Shown here: one piece after another, positions 15,428-47,894 of the stretch
Layout: each line of letters starts with the position of its first letter
Numbering within the stretch: position 1 is the first letter of the stretch
Source of the DNA: Acidobacteriota bacterium
Lineage (GTDB): Bacteria > Acidobacteriota > Terriglobia > Acidiferrales > UBA7541
Direction of reading: 5' to 3'
NCBI GenBank assembly: GCA_003224055.1
Contig: QHYE01000060.1
Location: 739-64,738 of the forward strand
Length of the DNA stretch: 64,000 bases
Notes under the pieces: generated by a model
What the model was told of the DNA's origin: nothing
What the model saw: only the letters and a program-made list of their open reading frames with translations
The model's database searches: none
Made by a program: the position numbers and the translations under genes

Positions 15428-18055
15428 TCAGTCTATAAAATCGATAACCGCCCCTTCGCGCCGGTCTTGGAATCCGGCGAACTGGCCGAAGTTTGGCGCG
15501 GTCACGTTGTTGTACACGGCGTTGAAATTGCCGTGATTTGTGACGTTCAGCGAGTACACACCCAGCCTGACGTGATGCGCCTTTCCTTTGCCGTGTTCTG
15601 AGCCAAGAAATGGAATGCGGAATTCGCGATAGAGTTTCACGTCCAGCGTGAAAAACGAATTGAAGCGCTGCCCGTTCGGCGTCCCCACATAGTTTTGCAG
15701 CGTATCGATGTTGGAATAGGGATAGCCAGTGTGTATATCCGCGATTGGGCTGAACTTGAAGCCGCGCGGCAAGGAAACAATTCCCCAGGTCACAACGCGG
15801 TTGGGCACGTCATACGGCAGAATGCCGTATACATTCGGGCGAATCACCGGCTGCGCGAAAGGAATGAGCACGGCAGAAAGATTGTTCAAATCCCCGCGCG
15901 TACGGCTCCAGATGTAGGAGACATTTACCTCATCGTTGCGATGAAAGGTGAAATGTACGGTGCTTTCCAGCTCGCGATAATGCGATGAGCCCGTGTCCGT
16001 GAGAGCCAAATAGGATTGCGCACCCGGCGCAGCCGTGAAAGGATTCACCGTAAACAGATGCGTTGTGTGGCTATCGGTATAACCGACGCGCAAAGACACA
16101 TTTCTCCGCAACTGGCGTTCGACTTCGATGTTCCATGTCAGGTTGCGTGGCGTCGTGCCCGGCTGGCTCGGCAATGCGCTCGCAGTCAGTGGGTTCATCC
16201 TGCCGGCGTAGGCGTTCGTGTAGGTAACCGGGGGCCCGCTCGGCAGGCCCGCCGTATCAAATGGCGTGATCACGCGAATTGGGTTCGCTGCGAAGTCTCC
16301 CGCCAGAAGCGGCAGCAAGCTATAGAACAAGCCCACGCCCGTTCGAATGACGGTCTTGCCGTCTTTGCCGGGAGAGTAGGCCACCCCGGCGCGCGGAGCC
16401 ACCGCGCCGGACCAACCCTTGGTCTCGCTCGACAATCGTGCTCCCAGATCAACGGCCCAATTGGAATTCAGTACCCAGTGATCCTGGAGGAATTCCGCCA
16501 CGGCCGTGTCCGATGCGTTCTGCGCTGTCCCAGGCAGAAAAGTTGTCTCTTGCGCCAGCGTCCCATCCTGACGAAGGACTTGCACCGGATTCGAGCTGCT
16601 GATTCCTGCGTACGACCGATGATCGAAATCTACGCCCACGTGGACTTCGTGGCGGCCGTGCCAGTGTTTCTCGGCGAATTGGTACGCGGAGACCAGTTGA
16701 AATTCCTTGCCCTTGCGCGACCATTGATTGAAGAAATTCCCGCCCCAGCCTTCCGGCGTAACCAGCATGTCCGCCGGGCCTTGGCCATGCGCATTGCTGT
16801 CAAACCGCGTGTACTGCGCAATCGTGCTGAAGATGGCACCCGAGCCAAACTGATACCGATCCGTCAGCCCAACCGCTATGCCTTTTTGGTTCAGGTCGTT
16901 CGAGGCCGGCTGGGGAACGAGAGCATTGATATCCGCGTGCTGTTGCCGCAGCGGGAACGCATTCACCGTGAGCATCAGGATGTGTGTATTGGAGAGGATC
17001 GCCTCGACGGTCGAAAACGAGCTGAACCCTTGCTTCTTGCTGATGTCATTGGGCCAGGGCAAGCCGCGCACCGTGCGCTTTTTCATGTCGTACTGGAAAA
17101 TTTCCGAAAATAGCAGTTTGTGGGCAAGCAACGGTACGCCAAAGTCCAGCCCCGGGGTCGCCTCCTGCAGTCCGATCATGCTCCCGTTCTTGCCGAGTAC
17201 GGACGGAATGAAACTTTTCAATCGGTAGTTCCACCGGTCGTCGGGAGGTTTGGTTTCTACCACCGTCAATCCACCGGAAAAACTTCCCAGGCCCGCGTTA
17301 TACGGCGTCTTGTACACCGCGAAGGACTGCACGGCGTCAGTCGGCACCGGCACGGAGAAACTTCCCGTCACCGGATCAGTGGTCCGCGCCGAATTCACGA
17401 GCAACAAGCTCTGATTCTCGTCCGCGCCTTTGAAGTTCAGTTTTCCATCCTGTGTTTTCACTACCCCGGGAGTAACCGGCAGAACTTCACGGATCCTTTC
17501 TTGCGCCGTCGGAAGTGAAATCAGTTGGCGCTGGGTAAGGGTCACGCTCGGCGTCGACACGCTCTCGGTCGCGATGGCTTGCGTATCTTCGCTGACTTCC
17601 ACTTTTTCCGTGACGGTCTCCAGCTCCGCGCGAATATCCAGAGCAGTAGCCTGTCCCGCATTCACTGTGACCGTCTTTGTATAGGGTTTAAATCCCGGCT
17701 GGTTGATAGAAATCGTGTACGTCCCCGGCTTGAGGCCCTTGAATTCGTAGCTCCCCGCCTCGTCCGTACCCGCTGTAAGCGGGCTGCCGTCGGGCCCCGG
17801 TGTCAGCTTCAAAATAACGCCTGCCAGGCCACTCGAAGTGTTCTCCTGCAGCGTGGTCACCGTCCCGTGAATGGACCCTGAACGTGGATTCTCTCCGCGA
17901 GAGTGGGTTTCTTGCGCAAACACCGGACCAGCCGCGAGCAGCAATATAAAAACAGCCACCGCCTCCAGAAACCAACCGCAGGCGAGGCGCCATGCCCGCG
18001 CAGTCGTGGGAGGTGAAGGCACGGTTCTGCCACTGTCAGGTCGAGGGAAGCTCAT
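15428..18055 (-). CDS. TonB-dependent receptor with carboxypeptidase-regulatory-like N-terminal domain
   Basis: GSIHGTVTT...GVILKLTPG...TDEAGSYEFKGLKPGTYTISINQPGFKPYTKTVTV is CarboxypepD_reg-like. It is followed by a plug and a long beta-barrel. Confidence 0.88.
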   Translation of the reverse strand: MSFPRPDSGRTVPSPPTTARAWRLACGWFLEAVAVFILLLAAGPVFAQETHSRGENPRSGSIHGTVTTLQENTSSGLAGVILKLTPGPDGSPLTAGTDEAGSYEFKGLKPGTYTISINQPGFKPYTKTVTVNAGQATALDIRAELETVTEKVEVSEDTQAIATESVSTPSVTLTQRQLISLPTAQERIREVLPVTPGVVKTQDGKLNFKGADENQSLLLVNSARTTDPVTGSFSVPVPTDAVQSFAVYKTPYNAGLGSFSGGLTVVETKPPDDRWNYRLKSFIPSVLGKNGSMIGLQEATPGLDFGVPLLAHKLLFSEIFQYDMKKRTVRGLPWPNDISKKQGFSSFSTVEAILSNTHILMLTVNAFPLRQQHADINALVPQPASNDLNQKGIAVGLTDRYQFGSGAIFSTIAQYTRFDSNAHGQGPADMLVTPEGWGGNFFNQWSRKGKEFQLVSAYQFAEKHWHGRHEVHVGVDFDHRSYAGISSSNPVQVLRQDGTLAQETTFLPGTAQNASDTAVAEFLQDHWVLNSNWAVDLGARLSSETKGWSGAVAPRAGVAYSPGKDGKTVIRTGVGLFYSLLPLLAGDFAANPIRVITPFDTAGLPSGPPVTYTNAYAGRMNPLTASALPSQPGTTPRNLTWNIEVERQLRRNVSLRVGYTDSHTTHLFTVNPFTAAPGAQSYLALTDTGSSHYRELESTVHFTFHRNDEVNVSYIWSRTRGDLNNLSAVLIPFAQPVIRPNVYGILPYDVPNRVVTWGIVSLPRGFKFSPIADIHTGYPYSNIDTLQNYVGTPNGQRFNSFFTLDVKLYREFRIPFLGSEHGKGKAHHVRLGVYSLNVTNHGNFNAVYNNVTAPNFGQFAGFQDRREGAVIDFID

Positions 18056-18304: not shown

Positions 18305-20944
18305 TTAGAAGTGAAAGCCCAGTTCGGCCGTGTACGTCCGCGGCGTCACAAAATGCGTTCCGCTGAACGTGGAGAGAAAATTGTAGAGCGCCACCTTGTT
18401 GGTTACGTTGATGGCCGTGAGGCGCAAGCTCCACTTGTAGCGATCGCCGCGGAGCAGGTTGTCGTCGCCGACGCTTAGATCAAACAGGTGCCTCGGCGCG
18501 ACGCGGGGCGGGTTGTGATCGTCGTTTGCCGTTCCCGGAGCCGGAAGGCTGATGCGCGTCGAACCATATAGTGTGGGATCGCAGGTGGTGAGCGGTGCCG
18601 TCAAAGTCGGAACCTGACTTCCGCAGAATAAGCCTGCCTGGATTTGCTGGTCCGCGGTGATGCCGGTCAAGTCCACGGGAGTCCCTGCGTCCGCCACCGG
18701 CACTGCCCCCGCAACCAGCCCGTTGTCATATCGCCAATTGAAGGCAATCCACGGCCACTCCTTCTTAGGCTGGTATTGCAGGTGCGTGGTTTGTTGGAAC
18801 TTCTGGTCGTGATCGATGCGGAACGCGCCGGCGGTCGTGAAATCCGTGCCCAACCCTCCCACTTGCGGATTGAAGAACCGCGAATTCACGCCGCTCATCA
18901 CCACGAACGCTGTCAACCCATGAAAATTCGGCACGCTTGTGCGCACCGAAAACCCGCTGATCTTCGAATTGTGCCAGGAGATAGGGAACGTAATAGGCGT
19001 GCCGAAGATGACGCCAAAGTCAAAAGCATTGTGGGTGTACTTCCACAAGTAGTCTGCGTCGACTACCACGTGTCGCCCGAAAGCCTGCTGGAACCCGCCG
19101 TGAAACTCGTTTCGCTGTCCGCCGCGAATCGATCCTGGGGCTCCCAGTACGCTGGAGAAGACACCTGCCGCATCCCCGAGACTTCCGACGATCAGGTTTT
19201 CGTTGAAGGGAGTTTCCAGAATCCGGGCGTAGGAAATCCTCAGCACGGTATTCGAAGGCTTGATGTTATAGGCGACGCCCAATCGAGGCTCTGCTTGCCA
19301 GTCGCGGCTGAGGCCGCGATAGATATCCCCGCGCACGCCCAGGTTGAACGACCAGTTTCCTGCCGTGATCGTGTCCTGAATATACAGCGCCACCTCCTTG
19401 ATGTCTGTATGCCCATGAAAGCGGAATAGGCCGCCTCCCTGCGTCAGGTCGAACGGCAGCAGAACCGCGCACGGATCGGGTGCCGGATTGCCGTTCGGGC
19501 ATCCGAGCGAGGGCAGAAAAGTCGGATCAACGATCCCAAGCCTTTCGTCCTCGGTCAGGAACGTATGCTGCAACGTCACCCCCGCCTTGATGTTGTGTCT
19601 CCCTTTCACGTACGAAACATCGGAACGAACGCCCAGGTTGCCTAGCGTACGATCTTGCGCGATGGTCGCGTTCTGCAGGAACGGGGTGAAATCGTCAAAT
19701 GGATTGCCGCTCGGGTAATAGTTGTAGTGATCTCGCCGCCCGAAGACTCCAAACGTAAAGAGAGTGGTGGAGCCAAACAGGTGCGTCCAAGTGGGGGCCA
19801 AGTTAAAAGTCTTGATCTGCGATCGCTGATCGCTGGGACCCAGGGGAGCGCCGGTCAGGGGATTCACCAGGAACGTGTCCGTGGCATCGCAATCAAACCC
19901 AAGCCCGGCAGGGCAAAGATGAAGTTGCGCGTCAAACGAATTGGGACTTTGAAACCAGGAACGCGTGTAGCCCGCGTTGAAATGGATGCTGTCCGCTTGG
20001 CTCAACTGAAAATCCACACGGTCAAACAGATTTTGCTGGTTCCCCTTGGAGTGCATCACCTGAAACTCCGGCGGATCGAGAAATCGGCTTGTTTCCAGAC
20101 CGTTTGCAGCGATGAAATTGCCCCACTTCTGTCCGCCGAAGGCCATGTCGAAGCTCGCTGTCGTGGTGCCAAAAGATCCGTACGACGCCCGCACGCTGCC
20201 AACCGGTTTCGTCTGGCCCATGCCCGAGCGCGTCGTGACTTTGATCACCAGGCTGGTCTTGTCGCCGAATTCCGCCGGCGGCGCGCCCGAAATCACTTCC
20301 AGCGATTGAATGGAATCCACGGGAATCTGGTTCGAGAAAACCTTGCTTTGCTGATCCGTGATCGGTTGTCCATCGACGGAAAACGAATTCTCCGCGTGAT
20401 CGCCCAGGCCGTGAAAGAGACCATTCGAATCGGCCACAACGCCCGGTGATGCCAGCGTCACCAGTGAACTGACCGAGGAGGATGGACTCTCGAGCGGCAG
20501 CTTTTCAAAAAGCCCGCGATCCACGTCCGTGTGAAAGGTAGAATCGTTTTCAAGGAGATCCGAACCCGTGGCCTCCACCGTGATACTCGTCGCGGCGGTT
20601 CCAATTTTCAAAATGATCGGCACCGTCGTCGGAACAGTTGAGCGCACATCCACGTCCTGCGTAAACGAGGCGAACCCGGGCGCCGTCACTACCAGGTGAT
20701 AAGGATTGAATGGCACGTTTGCGAAACGATAGCCACCATCGCTTCCCGTGGTGGTTTCCCGGTGATATCCGCTCACGGGATAGGAAATTTCCACCGTCGC
20801 ACCGGCGACCACTCCGCCGGATGCATCTTTCACTACGCCTTCTATCGAGCCGGAATTCCCTACTTGCGCCTTTGTTGGCCCAGCCGCCAAGCACAGAAAA
20901 AAGCCCAAAACCAAAATCACGTAAGTACTCAATCGCTTCAACAT
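18305..20944 (-). CDS. TonB-dependent receptor with carboxypeptidase-regulatory-like N-terminal domain
   Basis: Signal peptide, then GSIEGVVKDASGGVVAGATVEISYPVSGYHRETTTGSDGGYRFANVPFNPYHLVVTAPGF. C-terminus ...TYTAELGFHF ends in the terminal aromatic residue typical of outer-membrane barrels. Confidence 0.9.
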   Translation of the reverse strand: MLKRLSTYVILVLGFFLCLAAGPTKAQVGNSGSIEGVVKDASGGVVAGATVEISYPVSGYHRETTTGSDGGYRFANVPFNPYHLVVTAPGFASFTQDVDVRSTVPTTVPIILKIGTAATSITVEATGSDLLENDSTFHTDVDRGLFEKLPLESPSSSVSSLVTLASPGVVADSNGLFHGLGDHAENSFSVDGQPITDQQSKVFSNQIPVDSIQSLEVISGAPPAEFGDKTSLVIKVTTRSGMGQTKPVGSVRASYGSFGTTTASFDMAFGGQKWGNFIAANGLETSRFLDPPEFQVMHSKGNQQNLFDRVDFQLSQADSIHFNAGYTRSWFQSPNSFDAQLHLCPAGLGFDCDATDTFLVNPLTGAPLGPSDQRSQIKTFNLAPTWTHLFGSTTLFTFGVFGRRDHYNYYPSGNPFDDFTPFLQNATIAQDRTLGNLGVRSDVSYVKGRHNIKAGVTLQHTFLTEDERLGIVDPTFLPSLGCPNGNPAPDPCAVLLPFDLTQGGGLFRFHGHTDIKEVALYIQDTITAGNWSFNLGVRGDIYRGLSRDWQAEPRLGVAYNIKPSNTVLRISYARILETPFNENLIVGSLGDAAGVFSSVLGAPGSIRGGQRNEFHGGFQQAFGRHVVVDADYLWKYTHNAFDFGVIFGTPITFPISWHNSKISGFSVRTSVPNFHGLTAFVVMSGVNSRFFNPQVGGLGTDFTTAGAFRIDHDQKFQQTTHLQYQPKKEWPWIAFNWRYDNGLVAGAVPVADAGTPVDLTGITADQQIQAGLFCGSQVPTLTAPLTTCDPTLYGSTRISLPAPGTANDDHNPPRVAPRHLFDLSVGDDNLLRGDRYKWSLRLTAINVTNKVALYNFLSTFSGTHFVTPRTYTAELGFHF

Positions 20945-20990
20945 TTTTTCTCCATCCCCCCAAGGGTTATCGATAATGAGCGTGGATAGA

Positions 20991-21013
20991 AACCGCCTGG
21001 AACTGTGGCGGTT
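20991..21013 (-). promoter_or_regulatory. hairpin between mini-protein P1 and the TonB-dependent receptor (attenuator or terminator-like)
   Basis: Minus strand reads AACCGCC-ACAGTTCCA-GGCGGTT followed by TCTATCC. It lies 62 nt after the P1 stop and 47 nt before the receptor ATG. Confidence 0.35.
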
Positions 21014-21074
21014 GCGCGACAGCCTGGATAGGCGTCATCGCACAGGGATTGAAACTATCGAATTGGAGATTGCG

Positions 21075-21383
21075 TTACGCGGAGGGAGGGGCGCGCCCGG
21101 CGCGATGCAGGGCAAACGAATCGCTGGGGGCCGCGTGCAGCGGGAGCGAGGAATACCAGGTAACAAACTCAGGTGTGCTGACGAGATCCAGCGGTGCCGC
21201 TGCCAGAGTCGGCATGTGCAACGCCTGGCAAATATGACACGCTGGGTCCGGACCCTTCGTGTGCTGGTGAAGGAAGCTGCCGCCTGCCGCGAAATACAGC
21301 AGCGCGGCGCAAGCCAGTATCGCCAGCGCGCGCTGTGCCGTCGATCGTCTGAAAATCGTATTCTCCCAGTGCATAAGCGACAC
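21075..21383 (-). CDS. small membrane-anchored Cys/His protein ending in RAPPSA (P1)
   Basis: 102 aa. One TM helix (ALAILACAALLYFAAGGSFL), then HQH...DPACHICQALH, and the tail ALHRAGRAPPSA-stop. Paralogous to 21504..21779. Start is GTG 21383 or ATG 21374. Confidence 0.65.
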   Translation of the reverse strand: MSLMHWENTIFRRSTAQRALAILACAALLYFAAGGSFLHQHTKGPDPACHICQALHMPTLAAAPLDLVSTPEFVTWYSSLPLHAAPSDSFALHRAGRAPPSA

Positions 21384-21458
21384 TTTAGCTTAGCACCTTA
21401 GACGGGCTGCCAGGCAAGTTGGTTGCTATTGAGGTACCTGGGGGGAAGGGCGGGTAGC

Positions 21459-21487
21459 TTGACCTCGCAACCATTCTTCCCTAAGCT
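21459..21487 (+). promoter_or_regulatory. candidate promoter for P2 and the porin operon
   Basis: TTGACC (21459-21464), a 17-nt spacer, then TAAGCT (21482-21487). This would leave a very short leader before the ATG at 21504. Confidence 0.3.
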
Positions 21488-21503
21488 CCGTCTTACTAAC
21501 CAG

Positions 21504-21779
21504 ATGCGAGTCAACGCCCGGGGAACGTGCTTTCTCATTTTTCTTGTCGGCGCCTTCTTCCTGGCGACGCAGTTTCACTATTGCACTGACCTCATGGTTG
21601 ACCCGTCCGCTTCTCACATTTGTTCAGCATGTTCCACCATGGATTCCTTGGTAGCCGCGCCGGTGCCGCAGCTTGCCATCGCGCACGTCAACCACCGCTT
21701 GGAGATTGTGCCTTCGGTCCGCACAATCTTTCTGGCGGCTCCGCGCACTGCCTCTCTGCGCGCGCCTCCCTCCCTCTAG
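21504..21779 (+). CDS. small membrane-anchored Cys/His protein ending in RAPPSL (P2)
   Basis: 91 aa from the ATG at 21504 (the track ORF starts at TTG 21423). TM helix CFLIFLVGAFFLATQF, then HYC...DPSASHICSAC, and the tail ASLRAPPSL-stop. Same architecture as P1. Confidence 0.65.
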   Translation: MRVNARGTCFLIFLVGAFFLATQFHYCTDLMVDPSASHICSACSTMDSLVAAPVPQLAIAHVNHRLEIVPSVRTIFLAAPRTASLRAPPSL

Positions 21780-21849
21780 TTACTCGCGGTGCCCCGGTAA
21801 CAATCCCTAGGTGTCCAGACTATCGGTTGTATGAGTGAGGAGTAATGCC

Positions 21850-23250
21850 ATGAAGAGAATCGCAGTCCTGTCCGCCGTTATTTTCTTTTCTGCTGCTGCC
21901 TCGGCACAGCAAGCTCCCCCGGCCGAGCCGAAGAAAGACGTGCCCGCCACCCAATCTTCAGTCGCAGCGTCGGAAGAAACGCGCATGAAGACTCTCGAGG
22001 ATCAGGTGCGCACGCTGGCCGAGCAAGTAACCTTGCTCCGAGGCGAGCTGAAAGCGATGCGCGACGCGAGATCCGTTGAACCGCGCTCCGAAGAACCCAT
22101 TCTGCTTACGGCTGCACACGTCGCACCGGGCATTTTGGCTCCCTCCGCGCCCGCCGCCGTCCCAGCTTCGCCTGAGCCTGCCCTACCGCAGGCCACTCAG
22201 ACTCAGATTTTTGGAGGCGCCTCGTCCAACGCCAAACTCCTCAACCCGGACATCAGCCTGATTGGTGACTTCATCGGCGCCGCGGGACGCAACAACGTTT
22301 CTCCCTCGCCCTCGCTCGAATTGCACGAATCCGAAGTCGGCCTGCAAGCCATCATCGATCCCTACGCGCGCGCCGACGCTTTCATTTCCTTTGGCGAAAC
22401 CGGCGTAAACGTCGAAGAAGCCTATGTGACCTTCACCTCTCTTCCCGCCGGGCTTCTTCTGAAAGTCGGCAAAATGCGCGCGGAGTTTGGCAAGGTCAAC
22501 ACCATTCACAACCACGCCCTGTCATTTATCGATCGGCCGCTCGTGACCAACAATCTTGTCGGCGGCGAAGACGGTATCGATGACGCCGGCTTCTCCCTGT
22601 CGCGTTTCTTGCCCGCGCCGAAAGACTGGTTTTTCCAAGGGACGGCCCAGGTTTTCCGCGGCGATTCCGACGATCTGTTCCAGGCTAGGCGCCGCCAGGA
22701 CCTCAGCGTTGTTGGCCACCTCCGCGCTTACCGCGATCTCAGCGAATCCACCAATCTCGATCTCGGCGTTTCCTACGCTCGCGGCCACAACAATGCCGGT
22801 GTCGGCACCACTTTCGATCCTTCTAGATTTCTCACCAATCTCTACAGCGTCGACGCCACACTCCGTTGGAAACCCCTGCGTCGCGCCATTTATCACTCCT
22901 TCTTATTCCGCAATGAATTTTTCTGGAGCGCGCGCGACCAGGTTTCTCCCGCCACTGTTTTCCAGACCGAGCATGCCTTCGGCCTCTATTCCGACGCCGA
23001 ATACCGCGCCAACCGCCGCTGGACCATCGGCGGCCGCTTTGACCGCAGCGGTCACGCCGCCAACGCAAATCTGACGGATACCGGCTTTTCCGCTATCCTC
23101 ACCTACTGGCCCAGCGAGTTCAGCCAGATCCGCGGCCAGTACCGCTTCGGGCATCTCGCCGATCCGGTCACAACCAATTATTCGAACGCCAACGAATTCT
23201 TGTTTCAATTTCTCTTTGTGATGGGTGCGCATGGCGCGCATCCGTTCTAA
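21850..23250 (+). CDS. outer-membrane beta-barrel (porin-like) protein with N-terminal coiled coil
   Basis: Signal peptide MKRIAVLSAVIFFSAAASAQ and a heptad-like segment MKTLEDQVRTLAEQVTLLRGELKAMRD. Alternating beta-strand pattern, ending ...GAHGAHPF with a terminal Phe. A GAGGAG SD lies 7 nt upstream. Confidence 0.7.
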   Translation: MKRIAVLSAVIFFSAAASAQQAPPAEPKKDVPATQSSVAASEETRMKTLEDQVRTLAEQVTLLRGELKAMRDARSVEPRSEEPILLTAAHVAPGILAPSAPAAVPASPEPALPQATQTQIFGGASSNAKLLNPDISLIGDFIGAAGRNNVSPSPSLELHESEVGLQAIIDPYARADAFISFGETGVNVEEAYVTFTSLPAGLLLKVGKMRAEFGKVNTIHNHALSFIDRPLVTNNLVGGEDGIDDAGFSLSRFLPAPKDWFFQGTAQVFRGDSDDLFQARRRQDLSVVGHLRAYRDLSESTNLDLGVSYARGHNNAGVGTTFDPSRFLTNLYSVDATLRWKPLRRAIYHSFLFRNEFFWSARDQVSPATVFQTEHAFGLYSDAEYRANRRWTIGGRFDRSGHAANANLTDTGFSAILTYWPSEFSQIRGQYRFGHLADPVTTNYSNANEFLFQFLFVMGAHGAHPF

Positions 23251-23272
23251 AAGATTTTTCTGGAGACCCTCT

Positions 23273-24232
23273 ATGCAACGCACAACAACTCACACTCGTA
23301 TCAACCGTGTCAGCGCGCTTGCGGCCGCCTTCCTGCTCGTCCTCGCACTCGCCGTTCCGTCTGCGGGCCGCGCCGAAAGCAAACTGCAAATTATGACCGC
23401 CACTACGGACCTCGCCTCCCTGGCCCAAGAAGTCGGCGGCGACAAAGTGGATGTCGAATCCATCGCCCGCGGCTATCAGGACCCGCATTTCGTGGAAGCC
23501 AAGCCTAGTTTTCTGCTCAAGCTGCGCAGAGCCGATCTGCTCATCGTCGTCGGCCTCGAACTCGAGATCGGCTGGCTCCCGCCGCTCATCACGCAATCCA
23601 CTAATCCGAAAATCCAAGTCGGCGCACCCGGCTATCTTGACGCCTCGCGCTTCGCCAAGATCCTCGAAATCCCCACCGGCCAGGTGACTCGCGCCGAAGG
23701 CGACGTCCACCCCCTTGGGAATCCGCATTACTGGCTCGATCCGGAAAACGGTTTGCGCATCGCCAAGGGCATTCAGAACAAGCTCAGCGAGATGCGTCCC
23801 ATTGACTCTGCCTATTTCGCGCAGCGCTACGATTCGTTCGAACAGCGCCTGAAGCAGGCCGACCAACGGTGGCTGGCCGACATGAAGCCCTACGCCGGCC
23901 GCAAGATCGTCACCTATCACCGCTCCTGGCCGAACTTTGCGGAACACTTCGGCTTGAATGTCATTGGATACGTTGAGCCGCGGCCCGGCATTCCTCCCAG
24001 CCCCCAGCACACTGTGGAATTGATCGCGCAGATGAAGCGCGATGGCGTCAAACTCATCATCGTTGAGCCCTACTTCGATCTCAAGACGCCCAACAGTGTC
24101 GCGCGGCAAACCGGCGGTCAGGTCGTCGTTCTCACGCCCTCGGTAGGCGGCGAAAAAGAGATCACCGACTATTTCAAGCTGTTTGATTACGACATTGCTA
24201 AGCTCAAGCAAGCCTTTGATACCGTTCACTGA
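23273..24232 (+). CDS. metal (Zn/Mn-type) ABC transporter substrate-binding protein, ZnuA/TroA family
   Basis: ATTDLASLAQEVGGDKVDVESIARGYQDPHFVEAKPS...EGDVHPLGNPHYWLDPENG...VTYHRSWPNFAEHFGL...IIVEPYFD. Confidence 0.88.
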   Translation: MQRTTTHTRINRVSALAAAFLLVLALAVPSAGRAESKLQIMTATTDLASLAQEVGGDKVDVESIARGYQDPHFVEAKPSFLLKLRRADLLIVVGLELEIGWLPPLITQSTNPKIQVGAPGYLDASRFAKILEIPTGQVTRAEGDVHPLGNPHYWLDPENGLRIAKGIQNKLSEMRPIDSAYFAQRYDSFEQRLKQADQRWLADMKPYAGRKIVTYHRSWPNFAEHFGLNVIGYVEPRPGIPPSPQHTVELIAQMKRDGVKLIIVEPYFDLKTPNSVARQTGGQVVVLTPSVGGEKEITDYFKLFDYDIAKLKQAFDTVH

Positions 24233-24296
24233 TTCGAACGTTCCGCTGAACGCGCAAAAAACAGTTTGACGCTCGTTCGAAGGAGATGAAATCGCG

Positions 24297-25157
24297 ATGC
24301 TGGAATTCTTGCTGCCCGCTTTTGTAGCGAGCCTTATTCTTACAGGGATTCATGCCTATCTCGGCGTTCACGTGGTCGAACGGGGCGTCATCTTCGTGGA
24401 CCTAGCGCTCGCGCAGATCGCCGCGCTCGGCGCCACCGTCGCCATCGTTGCCGGCATGGACCCCCACGGCCGAGGCGCCTACTGGATCAGCCTGGGGTTT
24501 ACGTTCCTCGGGGCCGCGATCTTCGCGCTCGCGCGCAGCCGCCGCGGCCACATTCCCCAGGAAGCCTTTATCGGCATCGCTTACGCTGTTGCTTCCGCCG
24601 GCGCAATTCTTCTGATGAGCAAGGCGACCGGCGAAACCGAGCACCTGAAAGACATGCTCGTCGGCAATATCCTCGCCGTCTCCTGGGCCGAAGTGAAAAA
24701 AACCGCCATTCTCTATGGTGCCGTCGGCATCTTCCACTATATCTTCCGCAAAAAATTCCTGGCCATCTCCATGAATCACGCAAAAGCTGAGCAAGCGGGC
24801 CTCAACGTGCGCTTCTGGGATTTTCTCTTTTACGCTTCGTTTGGTTTTGTCGTGACGTCTTCCGTCGCCATCGCCGGCGTCTTGCTGGTTTTCTGCTATC
24901 TTATCGTCCCCAGCGTCGGCGCTATGCTCTTTGCGGACCGCATCGGCGCGCGCCTGGCTATCGGCTGGACCATGGGCACGCTAGTTTCCGCTCTCGGCGT
25001 CTATCTCTCCGCCCAAATCGACTTGCCCACGGGCGCCACCATCGTTGTCACGTTTGGCGGCGTCCTCATCATAATGTTCCTGGTCCACCTGCTTCTGCAT
25101 CACGGCCGCGAAGCTCGCCAGCTCGAAGGCGCAGCGGCTGCCCAGCGCGAAATCTAG
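24297..25157 (+). CDS. metal ABC transporter permease (ABC-3 / ZnuB-type)
   Basis: Multi-pass membrane protein, [45 protein letters not shown]..., the typical ABC-3 permease N-terminus. Confidence 0.88.
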
Positions 25158-25200: not shown

Positions 25201-25776
25201 CTATTTCGCGGGCTGCGCCGTCGGCGGCAAAATCCCGTTCAACCGCAAATAAATCGCCTGCGTCGCATAGTGGTCGGTCCAACTGCCACCCAGCGCCACC
25301 AGCGCCCCTCCCCGCGAAATCGGCCGGTTGCCGAACAACACGAATTGCTCCCCCAGTTTCGAATCGTCCACCTTCGCCAGCGCCGCCGTGCAAAACGCAA
25401 AGGAGTCCTTCACCGCCGCCACCAGCTTGTCCTTCGCATCCGTCTCCGCAATCTTCACGTCCGGCGCCGTCTGCCCGGAAATCTTCGCACAGAACGTATT
25501 GTTCGATTGCGCGATGTGCATCACCAGGTGCCCGAACGAATTCATCTCTGGCGAAGGCTTGAAGCCATACTTCTCCGCCGGCATCGCTTCGGCTGCCGCC
25601 ACCATGTTCTTCTCATATCGCCCCACTCCCGCTTTCACAAAGCCACTCACCGGATTCGACACCGGCGACAGGTCTGGCGGCGGACTCGCCGCTGGTGCCG
25701 CCTGCTGCGCAAACGCACTGCCCGCCGCCATAAACACCGCCATCACCGCAACCAGCAAACTCACGCGTGTTGTCAT
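25201..25776 (-). CDS. DinB-family (four-helix-bundle) protein with signal peptide
   Basis: [24 protein letters not shown]...[16 protein letters not shown]...[17 protein letters not shown]. Confidence 0.7.
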
Positions 25777-25923
25777 TTTTTCCTCCCGGCAAAATCCGCT
25801 CGAAAAGCATACGCCCTCCACAACTCTCCAACAAGCGTCACCTGCGCCCAGCCATTTTTCGGTTCACGGTGCCACTCCTATTTCCATTTCTTTGGAAACA
25901 TTTTCGCTCACGCCGCGTCTCTA

Positions 25924-25941
25924 CCTATAGCTATCTATAGG
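25924..25941. promoter_or_regulatory. inverted repeat overlapping the padR SD, candidate PadR operator
   Basis: CCTATAG-CTAT-CTATAGG has perfect 7-bp arms and ends 7 nt before the padR ATG. A second inverted repeat, TTTCCA-TTTCTT-TGGAAA, lies at 25881-25898. Confidence 0.45.
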
Positions 25942-25947
25942 AGCTCT

Positions 25948-26280
25948 ATGCTCAAGCCCAAAAACGACCTTCTCCAGGGCACCCTCGCCCTCCTGGTCCT
26001 CAAGACCCTCGCTCGCGGGCCCATGCACGGCTACGGCATCACTCTTCACATCCAGCAGGTTTCCGAAGACATCCTCCGCGTCGAAGAAGGTTCCCTCTAC
26101 CCCGCCCTCCACCGCATGGAACAGGACGGCTGGGTCAGCGCCGAGTGGGGCATGTCGGAAAACAATCGCCGCGCTCGCTACTATCGCCTCACTGCCGCGG
26201 GCCGTAAGCAGCTCGCCGCGGAAGAACTCGACTGGCAACGCCTCACGCAAGCCGTCGCCCACGTTCTCAAGTTCGCTTGA
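25948..26280 (+). CDS. PadR-family transcriptional regulator
   Basis: [85 protein letters not shown]. Confidence 0.93.
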
Positions 26281-26303
26281 GCGGCACGAAAGGAAGGTGC
26301 ACC

Positions 26304-28970
26304 GTGTCCTGGATCACTCGCCTGCGAGGCATGTTACGAAGGGAACGCTTGGATCACGACCTCGACGAAGAGCTGCGTTCGCACATCGAGATGCGCGCCG
26401 CCGATAACCTCGCCGCCGGCATGTCCCCTGAAGCGGCGCGCTACGAAGCGCAAAAGCGCTTCGGCAACACCGCGCTCCTCAAGGAAGACACTCGCAACAC
26501 CGACATCGTCGGCTGGGTGGACGTGGCCGCTCGCGATTTTCGTTACGCGCTGCGCATGCTGCAGCGCAGCCCCGGCTTCACCGCCGTCGCCGTTCTCACT
26601 CTCGCCCTCGGCATCGGCGCGAACACCGCGATTTTCTCCGCCATCAACTCCGTTCTTCTTCGCCCGCTTCCGTATCACGATCCGGGCAGCCTGGTGATGG
26701 TCTGGGAAACCAATTCGCAGCACCCCAAGCCCCACAACACCGTCTCTCCGCCGAATTTCCTCGATTGGCAAACCCGCAACACAGCTTTCTCAGACATGGC
26801 TTACATCGCCGACGTGCGCAACAATCTCACCGGAAATGGCGACCCCGAGGAGGTCGTCGTCCAGGCCGTCTCCGCCAATTTCTTTTCCGTGCTCGGAGTC
26901 AATCCACTCCTCGGCACCGGGTTCACCCCGGAAAATGGCCAAGCCGGTCACGACAACGTCGTCATTCTAAGTTACGGCCTTTGGAAGGATCGCTTCGCCG
27001 GCGATTCCGCCATTGTTGGCAAATCCATTCTTCTCAATGGAAAACCCCGGGCCGTCGTCGGCGTCGCGCCCCAAAATTTCAATTGGTTCATCAAGGACGG
27101 CTCGCTCACCGGCGCAAAGCCTCGCCTGTGGTCGCCCTTCGTGTTTAAGCAGTCGTTTCACGATCACAAACAAATCGGCCGCTTCCTGACCGTGGCTGCG
27201 CGCTTAAAGCCCGGCGTCACCCATGCGCAGGCGCAGGCCGAAATGACCGCCATCGCCGCCCAGCTCGAACACGAGTATCCCGATTTTGACGGGCATTGGG
27301 GAGTCAACGTCGTGCCGCTGCGCCAGCAGATTTCCGGCGAACTCCGTCCTGTTCTGCTGATCTTGTTCGGCGCCGTAGCTTTCGTCCTCCTGATCGCCTG
27401 CGCGAATGTTTCCAGCCTGCTTCTCGCCCGCGCGGCCAGCCGCGAACGTGAGATGGCCATTCGAACGGCCATCGGCGCAAGCCGCTGGCGCATCGCGCGT
27501 CAACTCCTAATGGAAAGTTTACTGCTCGCCGTGATCGGCGGAGGAATCGGCGTCGCGCTCACCGTGCTTGGCACGAATGCACTCCTCGCCGCGAGCCCGC
27601 ATAATCTTCTCGACCTCCCGTCCGTCTCGATCGATCTGCGACTCTTGACGTTTGCCGCTGCCGCCACCTTGTTGGCGGGCTTGCTCTTCGGCTTTCTTCC
27701 CTCCTATGTATCCGCGCATTCGCAGATCTCCCAAACGCTAAGAGAAGGTGGCCGCGGTTCGTCCACCGGCGAACGCCGCCGCTTCGCAAGGAGCGCCTTC
27801 GTCGTCGCGCAATTGAGCCTCGCGCTCGTCCTTCTCGCCGGCTCCGGTTTGCTGATTCGCAGCTTTGTGCGCCTCGTCGGCGTCCATCCGGGCTTTGATA
27901 CCGCTCACCTCTTGACCTTCAAGGTCTCCCTTCCGCAGTCCAAGTACGCCACGGACAAATTGTGCATGGCATTTTTCCAGCAGTTGCTTGCACGCATCGG
28001 CGCCGTTCCCGGAGTCCGCTCCGTCACCATGGAAAACTATCCGCCACTGACCGGTTTGGGTGCCGCCACCGGCGTCCACCTTCTCAACCAGCCGCAGGTA
28101 GCGCTGATGGATCTTCCCGTGGCGAACGTCCGCGTCGTCGGCCCTGAATATTTCTCCACGATGAGCATCCCTTTGCGTGTCGGCCGTCTTTTCAGTGAAC
28201 AGGAAATGGCGGAGGAAAAGCATGTCGCCCTCATCAACCAGGCTTTCGCGGACAAATATTTGAACGGCGTCAATCCCCTCGGCCAGAAAGCCGTCATCTA
28301 TATGAAGAGCCTGGCGGAGTCCGGCAATCAGCCGTCGGAAATCATCGGCGTGGTCGGCGATGTTCGCCAGATGGGGCTCGACGTCGCCGCGGAGCCCACC
28401 GTTTACTGGCCCATGCCCGAGCTCGTCTATTCGGGAATGACGATTCTGGTGCGCACTTCCAGCGATCCTTTGTCCGTGGTTTCCGCCATCCACAACGAGC
28501 TTCAGCAATTGGACCGCGAACAGCCCATGGCCTCCATCGCCACCATGGACCAGCTTCTCGCCGATTCGCTTTCCCGTGCGCGCTTTACCATGCTGCTTCT
28601 GGGAATTTTTGCCGCCGTCGCTCTGCTGCTTGCCGCCGTGGGCATCTACGGCCTGATCGCCTACAGCGTCACGCAGCGCACCCAGGAACTCGGCATCCGC
28701 ATCGCCCTCGGCGCGCAGCGCCGCGATGTCCTCCGCCTCGTCCTGCGTCACGGAACCCGTTTGACGCTGCTCGGCCTCGCACTGGGAATTGCCGCCGCCC
28801 TGGCGATCACGCGCCTCTTGGCCAGCCTGCTTTTCGGCATCAGCGCCACGGACCCGCTCACTTTCGCCGGTGTCGCCGCCTTGCTCGCGTTCGTCGCCCT
28901 GCTGGCCTGCTTCATCCCCGCCCGCCGCGCCACCCGCGTCGACCCCATCGTAGCCCTCCGCTACGAATAG
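26304..28970 (+). CDS. ADOP-type duplicated FtsX/MacB-like permease
   Basis: VSWITRLRGMLRRERLDHDLDEELRSHIEM...RSPGFTAVAVLTLALGIGANTAIFS, with two MacB_PCD/FtsX halves. I chose the GTG at 26304, preceded by a GGAAGG SD. The track ORF begins at TTG 26277, overlapping the padR stop. Confidence 0.9.
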   Translation: MSWITRLRGMLRRERLDHDLDEELRSHIEMRAADNLAAGMSPEAARYEAQKRFGNTALLKEDTRNTDIVGWVDVAARDFRYALRMLQRSPGFTAVAVLTLALGIGANTAIFSAINSVLLRPLPYHDPGSLVMVWETNSQHPKPHNTVSPPNFLDWQTRNTAFSDMAYIADVRNNLTGNGDPEEVVVQAVSANFFSVLGVNPLLGTGFTPENGQAGHDNVVILSYGLWKDRFAGDSAIVGKSILLNGKPRAVVGVAPQNFNWFIKDGSLTGAKPRLWSPFVFKQSFHDHKQIGRFLTVAARLKPGVTHAQAQAEMTAIAAQLEHEYPDFDGHWGVNVVPLRQQISGELRPVLLILFGAVAFVLLIACANVSSLLLARAASREREMAIRTAIGASRWRIARQLLMESLLLAVIGGGIGVALTVLGTNALLAASPHNLLDLPSVSIDLRLLTFAAAATLLAGLLFGFLPSYVSAHSQISQTLREGGRGSSTGERRRFARSAFVVAQLSLALVLLAGSGLLIRSFVRLVGVHPGFDTAHLLTFKVSLPQSKYATDKLCMAFFQQLLARIGAVPGVRSVTMENYPPLTGLGAATGVHLLNQPQVALMDLPVANVRVVGPEYFSTMSIPLRVGRLFSEQEMAEEKHVALINQAFADKYLNGVNPLGQKAVIYMKSLAESGNQPSEIIGVVGDVRQMGLDVAAEPTVYWPMPELVYSGMTILVRTSSDPLSVVSAIHNELQQLDREQPMASIATMDQLLADSLSRARFTMLLLGIFAAVALLLAAVGIYGLIAYSVTQRTQELGIRIALGAQRRDVLRLVLRHGTRLTLLGLALGIAAALAITRLLASLLFGISATDPLTFAGVAALLAFVALLACFIPARRATRVDPIVALRYE

Positions 28971-46433: not shown

Positions 46434-47894
46434 CTAGCGTTGGGTGGATGTTCCGAGGATGGCGCTGAATTCTGGAGTGCCGCGGAGTTTCGCAAAGGCG
46501 GGCTCTTCGTTCAGCCATTCCGCGAAGCGGCCAGGGTTTTTCGTTTTCGACTTGGCACGGCGGAGCGCGTTTATCGTGCCTTTACGGTCTCCGTCCAGCG
46601 CTCTGGCCACTGCCAGATTGCCGAGGGCCCACATGGAATCGGGGTCGGCAATGCTGGCCAACTCAAAATAGTCTTTCGCGTGACTCGCATCTTTCTGATC
46701 TAGACGCGCATTTCCCATTTCCATGGCCTGAACCAGCAAGCCCGCAACAGCCCGTTTTATAACGCGCAATTTTTCCTCGCGCTTCTCGTTTTCGGCACGG
46801 CCGCGGAGGGCGGCGAGCTGTTTTTCCACCGTGTCATGAATGACCGGACGGTTGGGCGGGTTTTGCTGCAATTCGAAAAGCCCGGCAGAAATTTCCCGAC
46901 TCAAATCTTCTTGCTCCGTGAATTCCTGTTTCTCCCGCTTCGCGCCGTCGCGAACAGCCTTGTCCTTTTCCAACGCATCGGCTCGCGCACGAAGGGCAGC
47001 GTTATCGGCGAGTCCCGCAAGCATCTGCGCGGCTTGACGATATTCTTTCCAGGTGGCGTAGAGATCGCCGGATTGCTCGAGCGCACGTGCGCGATCGGTT
47101 TCCTTGGCGGCCTGCAAAACAATGAACGAATCGTCTCGGCCTTCCCGGCCGTTCTTCATGGCCTGCAATCGAAACCACGCAAGCCCTTCCTCCATGGTGG
47201 CGGCAGGTGCCCATTGATGCGGTCCTTCGAACGGCCGTAAGAAATGCTGGTAGCCCAGCTTTTCCAATTCTTCGTCCGTGCGCACATCCTCGGGATAGTT
47301 GAAATCGTAGGTACCCACGGCGGCGAAGACTACGAAGGGGGCGTCTTTCGAATCGAACGCAATGGGATGAAATCCTGCACCATTGAGGAGCACGCCAGCC
47401 GCGTATTTGCAGACTTGCGCGATCTGTGCGGCTACGCGCGCACCGCCAGAAAATCCAGCGAGATAGACGCGGCGGTCGTCAATGGATAACCGCGCGTGCG
47501 TATCCTGGACGATGGCTTCGGCTGCCTCGGCCTCAATCTTCCACGAGCCGTTCCGGGAATTGTTCGAACCCACGAGAATATAGCCATGCCGTTCGGCAGC
47601 TTCCTTCATCAACTCAAGAGGCGCGCTGCCGCGCGCACCCGGATCAAATGCGTAAACGATGGGCCAGCGCTTGTCCGGTACATATTGAGAGGGAAGATAA
47701 AGGGCGTAGCTCTGTTCCGGCTGCTTCGTGGCAGCGACGCGAGGAAGGATCACGCCGGTTTGCAAAGGCGGGGGCCTCTCACCGGGTACCCGGCCCTGTT
47801 GGGGCAGAAGCGGGCTGGCGATAAAAGAGAGTGCCGCGAGAAGTAGTCTGAAATTTGGCAAACCGTTTCTTCCTCCCTTAGACGCACGGGACAA
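46434..47894 (-). CDS. alpha/beta hydrolase (esterase-like) fused to C-terminal TPR-like repeats
   Basis: ...YALYLPSQYVPDKRWPIVYAFDPGARG...RVYLAGFSGGARVA (nucleophile elbow), then helical repeats. Confidence 0.75.
   Translation of the reverse strand: MSRASKGGRNGLPNFRLLLAALSFIASPLLPQQGRVPGERPPPLQTGVILPRVAATKQPEQSYALYLPSQYVPDKRWPIVYAFDPGARGSAPLELMKEAAERHGYILVGSNNSRNGSWKIEAEAAEAIVQDTHARLSIDDRRVYLAGFSGGARVAAQIAQVCKYAAGVLLNGAGFHPIAFDSKDAPFVVFAAVGTYDFNYPEDVRTDEELEKLGYQHFLRPFEGPHQWAPAATMEEGLAWFRLQAMKNGREGRDDSFIVLQAAKETDRARALEQSGDLYATWKEYRQAAQMLAGLADNAALRARADALEKDKAVRDGAKREKQEFTEQEDLSREISAGLFELQQNPPNRPVIHDTVEKQLAALRGRAENEKREEKLRVIKRAVAGLLVQAMEMGNARLDQKDASHAKDYFELASIADPDSMWALGNLAVARALDGDRKGTINALRRAKSKTKNPGRFAEWLNEEPAFAKLRGTPEFSAILGTSTQR

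Follow-up and report, generated by a model that had tools for sequence, protein, structure and literature searches.

Two small open reading frames (ORFs) that diverge from a shared intergenic region, and that both end in an Arg-Ala-Pro-Pro (RAPP) motif, raise the question of whether they act in cis, as arrest peptides, on the metal-transport genes behind them. The pair lies in a stretch of 64,000 nucleotides (nt) of contig QHYE01000060.1 (assembly GCA_003224055.1) from an Acidobacteriota bacterium, hereafter the window. The first frame, P1, precedes the gene of a TonB-dependent-receptor-like outer-membrane protein, and the second, P2, heads an operon for porin-like, ZnuA/AztC-like and ZnuB-like proteins. 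A first-pass annotation of this DNA had proposed that both are metal-responsive arrest leaders. Our analyses make it probable that both frames encode leader peptides that regulate in cis, of the kind represented by CruR and CutF (the 'CutF-like', DUF2946-related proteins), a reading that finds good support in hallmarks conserved across more than 100 species and in the precedent of these two proteins (PMC9426467, PMC9973294, PMC12992588).

P1 ends in H-R-A-G-R-A-P-P-S-A-stop (stop codon at 21075-21077, minus strand) and P2 in L-R-A-P-P-S-L-stop (stop codon at 21777-21779), with two residues following RAPP in both. The two proteins are alike in layout at approximately 24% identity. Each carries a strongly hydrophobic N-terminal segment preceded by Arg residues, with Kyte-Doolittle maxima over 15 residues of 2.42 in P1 (ALAILACAALLYFAA, residues 16-30) and 2.39 in P2 (GTCFLIFLVGAFFLA, residues 7-21), which hydropathy identifies as a membrane-targeting segment and which bears out the transmembrane helix annotated at first pass. 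The Cys of the H-I-C motif precedes the Arg of RAPP by 45 residues in P1 and by 46 in P2; counted as in the CruR literature, the CxxC-to-RAPP spacer is 44 residues in P1 (CHIC) and 42 in P2 (CSAC). The 15 nt encoding R-A-P-P-S match at 14 of 15 positions (CGCGCCCCTCCCTCC and CGCGCGCCTCCCTCC). This identity needs no special cause, because the codon preferences of the family suffice to explain it: each RAPPS codon is among the commonest of its own leader family, with the exception of the P2 Ser codon TCC, and gene conversion was rejected as an explanation on this ground. The P2 start (ATG 21504, 91 residues) is backed by relatives, which also make ATG 21374 (99 residues) the more likely start of P1 over the in-frame GTG 21383; no recognisable Shine-Dalgarno (SD) sequence precedes either start. 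Downstream, the receptor gene begins 130 nt past the P1 stop, with its SD GGGGGGATGGAG at 20961-20950, and the porin-like gene (ATG 21850) begins 70 nt past the P2 stop, with its SD GAGTGAGGAG at 21833-21842. The ORF ends, motif distances, the 14/15-nt match, the 70-nt gap and both SD positions given in the first-pass annotation were thus all reproduced.

In a six-frame scan of the window, only four frames presented RAP[PG] within four residues of the stop; two of these are P1 and P2, and the remaining two lie out of frame within long genes. A third RAP[PG]-terminal ORF (R-A-P-G-S-N-A-stop; 47581-47634, plus strand) was rejected as spurious, being out of frame in a 486-residue gene on the opposite strand (46434-47894).

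To define the family, relatives of both proteins were searched in a collection of 5.8 billion proteins, yielding 528 relatives of P1, mostly of 99 residues, and five of P2. Among the 120 P1 relatives listed of the 528, RAPP-x-x-stop is present in 119, a spacer of 44 in 118, C-H-x-C in all 120 and CH[IVM]C in 116, and the five P2 relatives all combine C-x-A-C, a spacer of 42 and RAPP-x-x-stop. Public gene calls of 99 and 91 residues for the two families number in the hundreds and are independent of each other; the source record of one relative reads 'hypothetical protein'. A profile of both types, run exhaustively against 1.84 billion cluster representatives, recovered 110 clusters at 50% identity, which form a coherent family. 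R[AG]PP lies within six residues of the end in 85 of the 110 representatives, with spacers solely of 42-45 residues, and the representatives lacking it are mostly fragments or frameshifted calls.

A species-level scan with P1-type sequences as query, using one genome per species, detected a P1-type gene in 107 genomes, and 80 loci were kept, the nearest of which is 94% identical. Nearly all of these loci belong to Acidobacteriota ('Candidatus Acidoferrum/Acidiferrum', gp2). Eight locus records (L011, L031, L032, L036, L039, L040, L069 and L078) are labelled Verrucomicrobiia, Saccharimonadales, Udaeobacter, Limnocylindria, Eisenbacteria or Dormiibacterota, probably through errors of binning or labelling in collections of metagenome-assembled genomes. 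RAPP-x-x-stop with a spacer of exactly 44 was found in all 80 P1-type ORFs, a spacer of exactly 42 in all 61 divergently placed P2-type ORFs, and RAPP plus two residues in the 141 leaders of both types. Within RAPP the Arg and Ala codons vary synonymously and the amino acids stay constant in the 80 P1-type and 61 P2-type ORFs. Pairwise identity within the spacer drops to 0.27 among P1-type and 0.19 among P2-type leaders; a fixed length combined with a drifting sequence is what one would expect of a molecular ruler spanning the distance from a sensor to the peptidyl-transferase centre. Furthermore, an alignment of 73 family members has invariant columns at H36, C46 and C49, and conservation also extends over the ~17 C-terminal residues of P1-type leaders (AP...FSLHRA.RAPP), in keeping with an arrest segment that interacts with the exit tunnel.

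The genes behind the leaders are conserved as well. A receptor with CarboxypepD_reg and Plug domains follows the P1-type ORF in 77 of the 80 loci, at a median gap of 127 nt, and the other three loci gave no downstream match. P2-type ORFs head an OEP/CzcB/RND operon of the CzcCBA efflux type in 46 of 61 loci (median gap 91 nt) and a porin-like/ZnuA/ZnuB operon, with the gene order of the window, in 14 of 61 (median gap 75 nt). The leaders of efflux and porin operons are poorly separable, with identities of 0.58-0.59 within and 0.50 between the two groups. In the one proteobacterial czcCBA locus that was inspected, a MerR regulator is present and the small leader is absent.

The RND protein behind P2-type leaders belongs to the CusA/CzcA family of heavy-metal pumps (TIGR00914, 858 bits versus a cut-off of 701), and all 44 pumps recovered carry the motif DFG-DGT-VEN in their fourth transmembrane helix. 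This motif we take to mark the divalent zinc, cobalt and cadmium (CzcA) type, and not the copper and silver (CusA) type, of the heavy-metal efflux RND classification (Nies 2003). The metal-binding protein of the window matches Pfam ZnuA, and its best NCBIfam match, to AztC, falls below the cut-off. It has His at three ligand positions (QDPH88, GNPH168 and TYH232) that are typical of zinc-type cluster A-I proteins, and its nearest solved structures are those of the zinc-uptake protein ZnuA of Synechocystis. The locus is overall a metal-homeostasis island, and its cargo genes suggest zinc or another divalent cation, and not copper, as the metal that at least the P2-type leaders sense.

Arrest leaders of this architecture have been described in other bacteria. 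CruR (Bp2923, DUF2946/PF11162) of Bordetella pertussis carries a CXXC motif separated by 45 residues from a RAPP that lies three residues before its end (Roy et al. 2022, PMC9426467). Its gene precedes that of a TonB-dependent transporter by 162 nt, and copper sensed via CXXC relieves the RAPP stall, leading to Rho-dependent termination (PMC9426467); the arrest, with its toeprint, was shown in vitro (Fujiwara et al. 2025, PMC12992588). Small ORFs with RAPP or RGPP are enriched upstream of TonB-dependent receptors in Gram-negative phyla, and both motifs are strongly avoided in bacterial proteomes and stall robustly in many sequence contexts (PMC12992588). In CutF of Rhodobacter capsulatus, also a DUF2946 protein, a copper-bound stall opens a stem-loop that hides the SD of the next gene (PMC9973294; bioRxiv 10.1101/2025.02.05.636593), and among 5,334 CutF-like proteins surveyed, the commonest neighbours were OEP/RND efflux genes, followed by TonB-like genes (PMC9973294). 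The first-pass annotation had held that no arrest peptide linked to metal or outer-membrane uptake was on record; this was wrong, because CruR (2022), CutF (Öztürk 2021-2025) and the survey of upstream ORFs with RAPP (Fujiwara 2025) place such an architecture before TonB receptors and RND pumps.

P1 and P2 resemble CruR as small, exported or membrane-targeted proteins encoded first in an operon, with CXXC at a distance from RAPP that is fixed within each family (45 residues versus 44 in P1 and 42 in P2) and with RAPP a few residues before the stop; P1, moreover, lies directly upstream of a TonB-dependent transporter across a long gap (130 nt versus 162 nt in CruR). They differ in having two residues after RAPP where CruR has three, in additional conserved His residues (H-x-H, C-H-x-C-Q-x-L-H), in a first Pro codon that is the rare CCU where the RAPP codons of CruR are frequent ones, in phylum, in the CarboxypepD_reg type of the P1 receptor, and in a metal that may be zinc instead of copper. 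With CutF they share small size, a Cys metal motif, a C-terminal Pro-rich stalling motif and probable Sec targeting, and like CutF they would act in cis on the gene that follows by way of an RNA structure shielding its SD; the neighbours of CutF-like proteins (OEP/RND and TonB-like genes) also recur in related genomes, as cargo of P2-type and P1-type leaders, respectively. In contrast, CutF has CxxxC, a PPP-type motif, a multicopper oxidase (cutO) operon and a dependence on EF-P, whereas P1 and P2 have CxxC, a RAPP C-terminus and no multicopper oxidase downstream; an SD-shielding structure is supported for the P1 leader only, with no stem-loop demonstrable for P2, and ZnuA/ZnuB/porin cargo goes unmentioned in the main text of PMC9973294. 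SecM, ApdA, ApdP and ApcA likewise combine a RAPP, RAPG or RAGP motif near the C-terminus with an N-terminal localisation signal, and regulate a downstream gene in cis from a stall a few codons before the stop (Sakiyama 2021; Fujiwara 2024, PMC10987492). These peptides, however, monitor protein export, lie upstream of secA, secDF or yidC and carry no Cys/His metal motif, whereas the cargo of P1 and P2 is metal transport.

P1 and P2 are best described as a remote, unrecognised branch of the DUF2946/CutF-like group, a convergent branch being less likely. Matches to PF11162, whose gathering score is 23.7 bits, were found below threshold in 47 of the 73 family members (best E 2.8e-4; 10-18 bits in the members examined individually), always across profile positions ~55-117, the half running from CxxC to RAPP, and with no rival Pfam family. 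The P1-like relative P0291, which likewise precedes a CarboxypepD_reg receptor, matches the P1/P2 family profile at E = 1.4e-6, and a weak PF11162 hit is precomputed for it. CXXC, a near-terminal RAPP and an operon-first position followed by a long gap are CruR-family features present in both leaders; the spacing rule of that family (45 +/- 1-2 residues) accommodates the P1-type spacer of 44, and the P2-type spacer of 42 is three residues short. A tblastn search with members of the P1/P2 family against plasmid records returned nothing or noise. Common descent with CruR and CutF is likely but not proven, because the PF11162 matches remain below threshold.

By analogy with these systems, each leader would be translated at the head of its operon, its hydrophobic N-terminus bringing the nascent chain to the membrane. 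Peptide-bond formation would then stall at the C-terminal RAPP, the P and A sites being occupied by the two Pro codons, a position predicted for P1 from the CruR toeprint (PMC12992588), and at this point the Cys/His motif, 44 (P1) or 42 (P2) residues upstream, would be just out of the exit tunnel, where its occupancy by metal would alter the duration of the stall. Both the occurrence of such a stall and its metal dependence, as well as the direction of that dependence and the coupling to the next gene, are what CruR and CutF would lead one to expect of P1 and P2. A ribosome parked on the final codons of the leader would keep the downstream gene on, P1 controlling the TonB-dependent receptor and P2 the porin-like/ZnuA/ZnuB operon. 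The parked ribosome might bar Rho from the C-rich, G-poor tract after the stop, as in CruR, or it might hide the CCUCC anti-SD sequence of the Pro codons, together with a nearby CUCC, and free the downstream ribosome-binding site, as in CutF and SecM; these two routes are about equally likely and are not mutually exclusive.

A coupling of the CruR kind, in which the stalled ribosome blocks Rho at a rut-like tract and release of the stall brings premature termination, is one that we entertain tentatively. The 20-40 nt past the stop are C-rich, G-poor and pyrimidine-rich in all three kinds of leader (first 20 nt: C 0.33-0.38 versus G 0.11-0.17), as would suit a Rho loading site of the CruR kind, and the long intergenic gaps rule out translational coupling. 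A scan of 20800-21950 found no intrinsic terminators and no sigma-70 consensus promoters, and CruR, the system nearest in architecture, likewise heads a TonB-dependent transporter (PMC9426467). The unstructured C-rich tract is short, however (20-40 nt), and the rest of the P1 leader is highly structured.

That structure bears on the other route. The receptor leader RNA presents, in order, a CUCC tract, hairpin A, hairpin B, a conserved UCUAUCCAC box and the SD GGAUGGAG. Assessed per sequence, hairpin A folds in 72 of 72 receptor leaders with varied pair types, and hairpin B is almost invariant. RNAalifold on a MAFFT alignment of the 72 leaders recovered hairpin B alone, because indels scramble hairpin A, and Rfam 15 gave no match at E <= 1 on either strand of 20800-21950. 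The GGAG of the receptor SD has a mean probability of being unpaired of 0.061, compared to 0.183 after dinucleotide shuffling of the upstream sequence, and 66 of 72 leaders show the lower value (p = 7e-11, the leaders compared here being phylogenetically related, so that p-values overstate their independence). The final 33 nt of the leader ORF, the region of the RAPP codons, account for 34% of its partner probability, and the 40 nt past the stop for 42% (76% together). Furthermore, the first Pro codon of RAPP (21087-21089, minus; 21765-21767, plus) is CCU in 63 of 80 P1-type and 50 of 61 P2-type leaders, compared to a share of 12% among the Pro codons of the adjacent receptor genes, and the Ala codon of RAPP drifts meanwhile; CCU-CCN spells the anti-SD sequence CCUCC, which through this bias is present in ~80% of P1-type and of P2-type leaders. 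P1-type leaders are also enriched in CGA as the Arg codon (35/80 versus a background of 11%).

Given these observations, an exclusively SecM- or CutF-like coupling, in which the ribosome stalled over the Pro-Pro CCUCC unmasks the SD and Rho has no role, is possible but somewhat doubtful. In its favour, the CCU bias agrees with an embedded anti-SD, the receptor SD is more sequestered than in shuffles, the RAPP-codon region holds 67% of SD partner probability in the P2-to-porin leaders, and CutF provides the precedent (PMC9973294). The same bias could nonetheless stem from an effect of tRNA or decoding on the arrest. Masking the 45 nt covered by a stalled ribosome lifts the probability that the receptor SD is unpaired from 0.06 to only 0.19, because a second CUCC, 10-16 nt past the stop, and a local CUAUCC box can go on pairing with it. 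The region behind P2 is no more stably folded than its shuffles (z = +1.0), the pairing of P2-type SDs equals that of composition-matched shuffles (p = 0.76), and no conserved structure precedes the porin gene. The unmasking by CCUCCCUCC codons envisaged in the first-pass annotation is thus upheld in part for P1, where the leader is structured, the SD sequestered and the codon bias in agreement, and limited there by the small release upon masking; for the P2 region, at the coordinates given in that annotation, it does not hold. As a separate observation, the efflux version of the P2-type leader (L007-L084) has a conserved GUCCC...GGGAC hairpin a few nt before the SD of the OEP operon, which the porin version does not have and which is not an intrinsic terminator, because it is without a U-tract.

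Alternatively, P1 and P2 could be small proteins that persist in the membrane or periplasm and bind metal there, for example as metallochaperones or as accessory transporter subunits, with RAPP serving as a structural, sorting or degradation signal. P1-type spacers do have a mean identity of 62%, with several conserved positions outside the motifs, the conserved His and Cys could make a genuine metal site, and CzcI of Cupriavidus metallidurans (CutF-like cluster 20), which is encoded upstream of czcCBA and is without a Pro motif, has been discussed as a metal-sensing regulator (PMC9973294). We nevertheless regard this explanation as quite improbable: RAPP and RGPP are avoided in proteomes and stall robustly (PMC12992588), the motif always lies one or two residues from the stop, the spacer is invariant in length at identities down to 19-27%, the leader is always first in its operon and followed by a long gap, and in cells the CruR and CutF proteins either escape detection or are short-lived (PMC9426467, PMC9973294). 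By its published description CzcI resembles P2-type leaders in being a small ORF before a CzcCBA divalent-metal efflux system, as in the 46 efflux loci, and it differs in its C-terminus, as all P2-type leaders end in RAPP-x-x, and from the window in its cargo, as P2 here precedes an import-like operon.

The idea that P1 and P2 arose as ORFs by chance, or that a conserved promoter element or non-coding RNA has been mistaken for coding sequence, is effectively refuted: although neither has a recognisable SD, a near-invariant nucleotide block adjoins the P2 start and spurious ORFs are common in high-GC genomes, no species (80/80 and 61/61) has a broken reading frame or an indel within the 44- or 42-residue spacer, Arg and Ala codons vary around fixed amino acids, independent gene calls of 99 and 91 residues run into the hundreds, and the 110 clusters returned by the profile search make up a coherent family.

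Several points nonetheless weigh against P1 and P2 being metal-responsive leaders of the CruR/CutF kind. Neither protein has a Pfam or NCBIfam match even at E <= 1, and convergence on CxxC plus RAPP is possible; the stall and its metal dependence are argued by analogy; and to these are added the limited release of the receptor SD, the shuffle-like folding of the P2 region and the relatedness of the leaders compared. In addition, P2-type leaders mostly front efflux operons and here front an import-like operon, which is hard to reconcile with one simple regulatory logic. The metal sensed may be other than the metal transported, the sign of the metal effect on stalling may have flipped within the clade, as it differs between CruR and CutF, or the RNA logic may be unlike between the two types of operon.

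One composite version of the leader reading would hold that P2-type leaders are arrest sensors for zinc (or divalent metal) and not copper, that a single type has been rewired for both CzcCBA efflux and ZnuA/ZnuB/porin import, and that the CCU-CCN arrest codons are under synonymous selection as an anti-SD. Taken jointly, these claims are unlikely. If the rewiring were true, the metal sign of the stall would flip within one clade, or a toxic metal would induce zinc import; if the codon selection were true, the stalled ribosome would physically cover the very element responsible for silencing the gene downstream.

Because the principle has been published before, these leaders constitute an extension and not a new mechanism. 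New here are the acidobacterial clade, a probably zinc-related (divalent-metal) cargo, the paired divergent layout, the CCU/CCUCC bias and the structured receptor leader with its sequestered SD. The list of more than 2000 CruR homologues of Roy et al. includes no Acidobacteria, and metal-sensing arrest leaders of the CruR/CutF type would now extend to these abundant soil bacteria, whose regulation has hardly been studied by experiment. The divergent leader pair is conserved in more than 100 species, is missed by Pfam and NCBIfam models, and is annotated as hypothetical or left uncalled. Such leaders provide sequence-defined test cases for how metal binding relates to stall length, for the exact spacer and for the coupling to the downstream gene. 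The coordinates of the features are collected in Table 1.

Table 1. Features of the leader locus (positions in the window).
Feature	Position	Strand	Description
Receptor gene	18305..20944	minus	TonB-dependent-receptor-like outer-membrane protein (CarboxypepD_reg + Plug; Pfam); proposed P1 cargo
P1-to-receptor intergenic leader RNA	20945..21074	minus	130 nt
Receptor SD GGGGGGAUGGAG	20950-20961	minus	in P1-to-receptor leader RNA
Conserved UCUAUCCAC box	20982-20990	minus	in P1-to-receptor leader RNA
Hairpin B, CCGCC...GGCGG	20993-21011	minus	in P1-to-receptor leader RNA
Hairpin A	21014-21043	minus	in P1-to-receptor leader RNA
C-rich/G-poor tract with CUCC	21063-21070	minus	in P1-to-receptor leader RNA
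P1 leader ORF	21075..21374	minus	99 residues; hydrophobic N-terminal helix, H-x-H, C-H-I-C, 44-residue spacer, R-A-P-P-S-A-stop
P1 R-A-P-P codons CGC GCC CCT CCC	21084..21095	minus	predicted arrest site
P1 CxxC (Cys-His-Ile-Cys) codons	21228..21239	minus	putative metal-binding motif
Divergent promoter region between leaders	21375..21503		holds ~43-nt block 21457-21499
P2 leader ORF	21504..21779	plus	91 residues; hydrophobic N-terminal helix, F-H-Y-C, S-H-I-C-S-A-C, 42-residue spacer, R-A-P-P-S-L-stop
P2 CxxC (Cys-Ser-Ala-Cys) codons	21621..21632	plus	
P2 R-A-P-P codons CGC GCG CCT CCC	21759..21770	plus	predicted arrest site
P2-to-porin intergenic region	21780..21849	plus	70 nt; pyrimidine-rich, G-poor; SD GAGUGAGGAG 21833-21842
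P2 cargo operon	21850..25157	plus	porin-like 21850-23250, ZnuA/AztC-like 23225-24232, ZnuB-like permease 24297-25157

The ~43-nt block in the divergent promoter region is near-invariant across 48 species, is conserved above the adjoining coding sequence and lies directly 5' of the P2 start. It contains TTGACC (21459-21464) and, after 17 nt, TAAGCT (21482-21487), whose end is 16 nt before the ATG. These features suggest a promoter that would yield only a very short leader, perhaps with an operator overlapping it. A metalloregulator box was sought in this region and rejected, as no inverted repeat of 8 nt or more was found; the region holds a 7-nt inverted repeat (TGGTTGC/GCAACCA at 21420-21426 and 21467-21473) and the promoter-like block only.

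Regarding the cargo genes, the porin-like protein (466 residues) matches Pfam Porin_O_P below threshold only and has no NCBIfam match, and searches of solved structures with this protein and with the receptor returned no informative relatives. The porin-like/ZnuA/ZnuB operon contains no gene for an ATP-binding cassette ATPase (ZnuC), and the ZnuB-like gene is followed on the opposite strand (25201-25821, minus) by a gene for a DinB_2-family protein. Directly downstream of the P1-cargo receptor lies a second receptor gene of the CarboxypepD_reg/OMP_b-brl_4 type (15428-18055, minus); this tandem arrangement was found again in 30 of the 80 related loci, so that the second receptor may share a transcription unit with the first.

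Comparison of the window with its closest relative, locus L005, reveals near-identical leader RNAs and identities of 92-96% for the porin-like, ZnuA and second-receptor proteins. The P1-cargo receptor shows only 67% protein identity (window 18305-20944 versus L005 5431-8091) and seems to evolve, or to be exchanged, faster than its neighbours. L005 also carries a 2.47-kb insertion between the leaders, relative to window positions 21405-21457, with a gene for a 661-residue P-type ATPase (L005 2889-4874, plus strand) that has TGES, DKTGT and GDGVNDAP motifs, a His-rich N-terminus and no CPC motif, and is probably a heavy-metal pump. Further downstream in the window (25900-28970, plus strand), a PadR-family regulator gene is followed by a gene for a MacB/FtsX-type permease of 897 residues; the pair, a common one in acidobacteria, also flanks the locus in L001 and L002 and is probably unrelated to the leaders.

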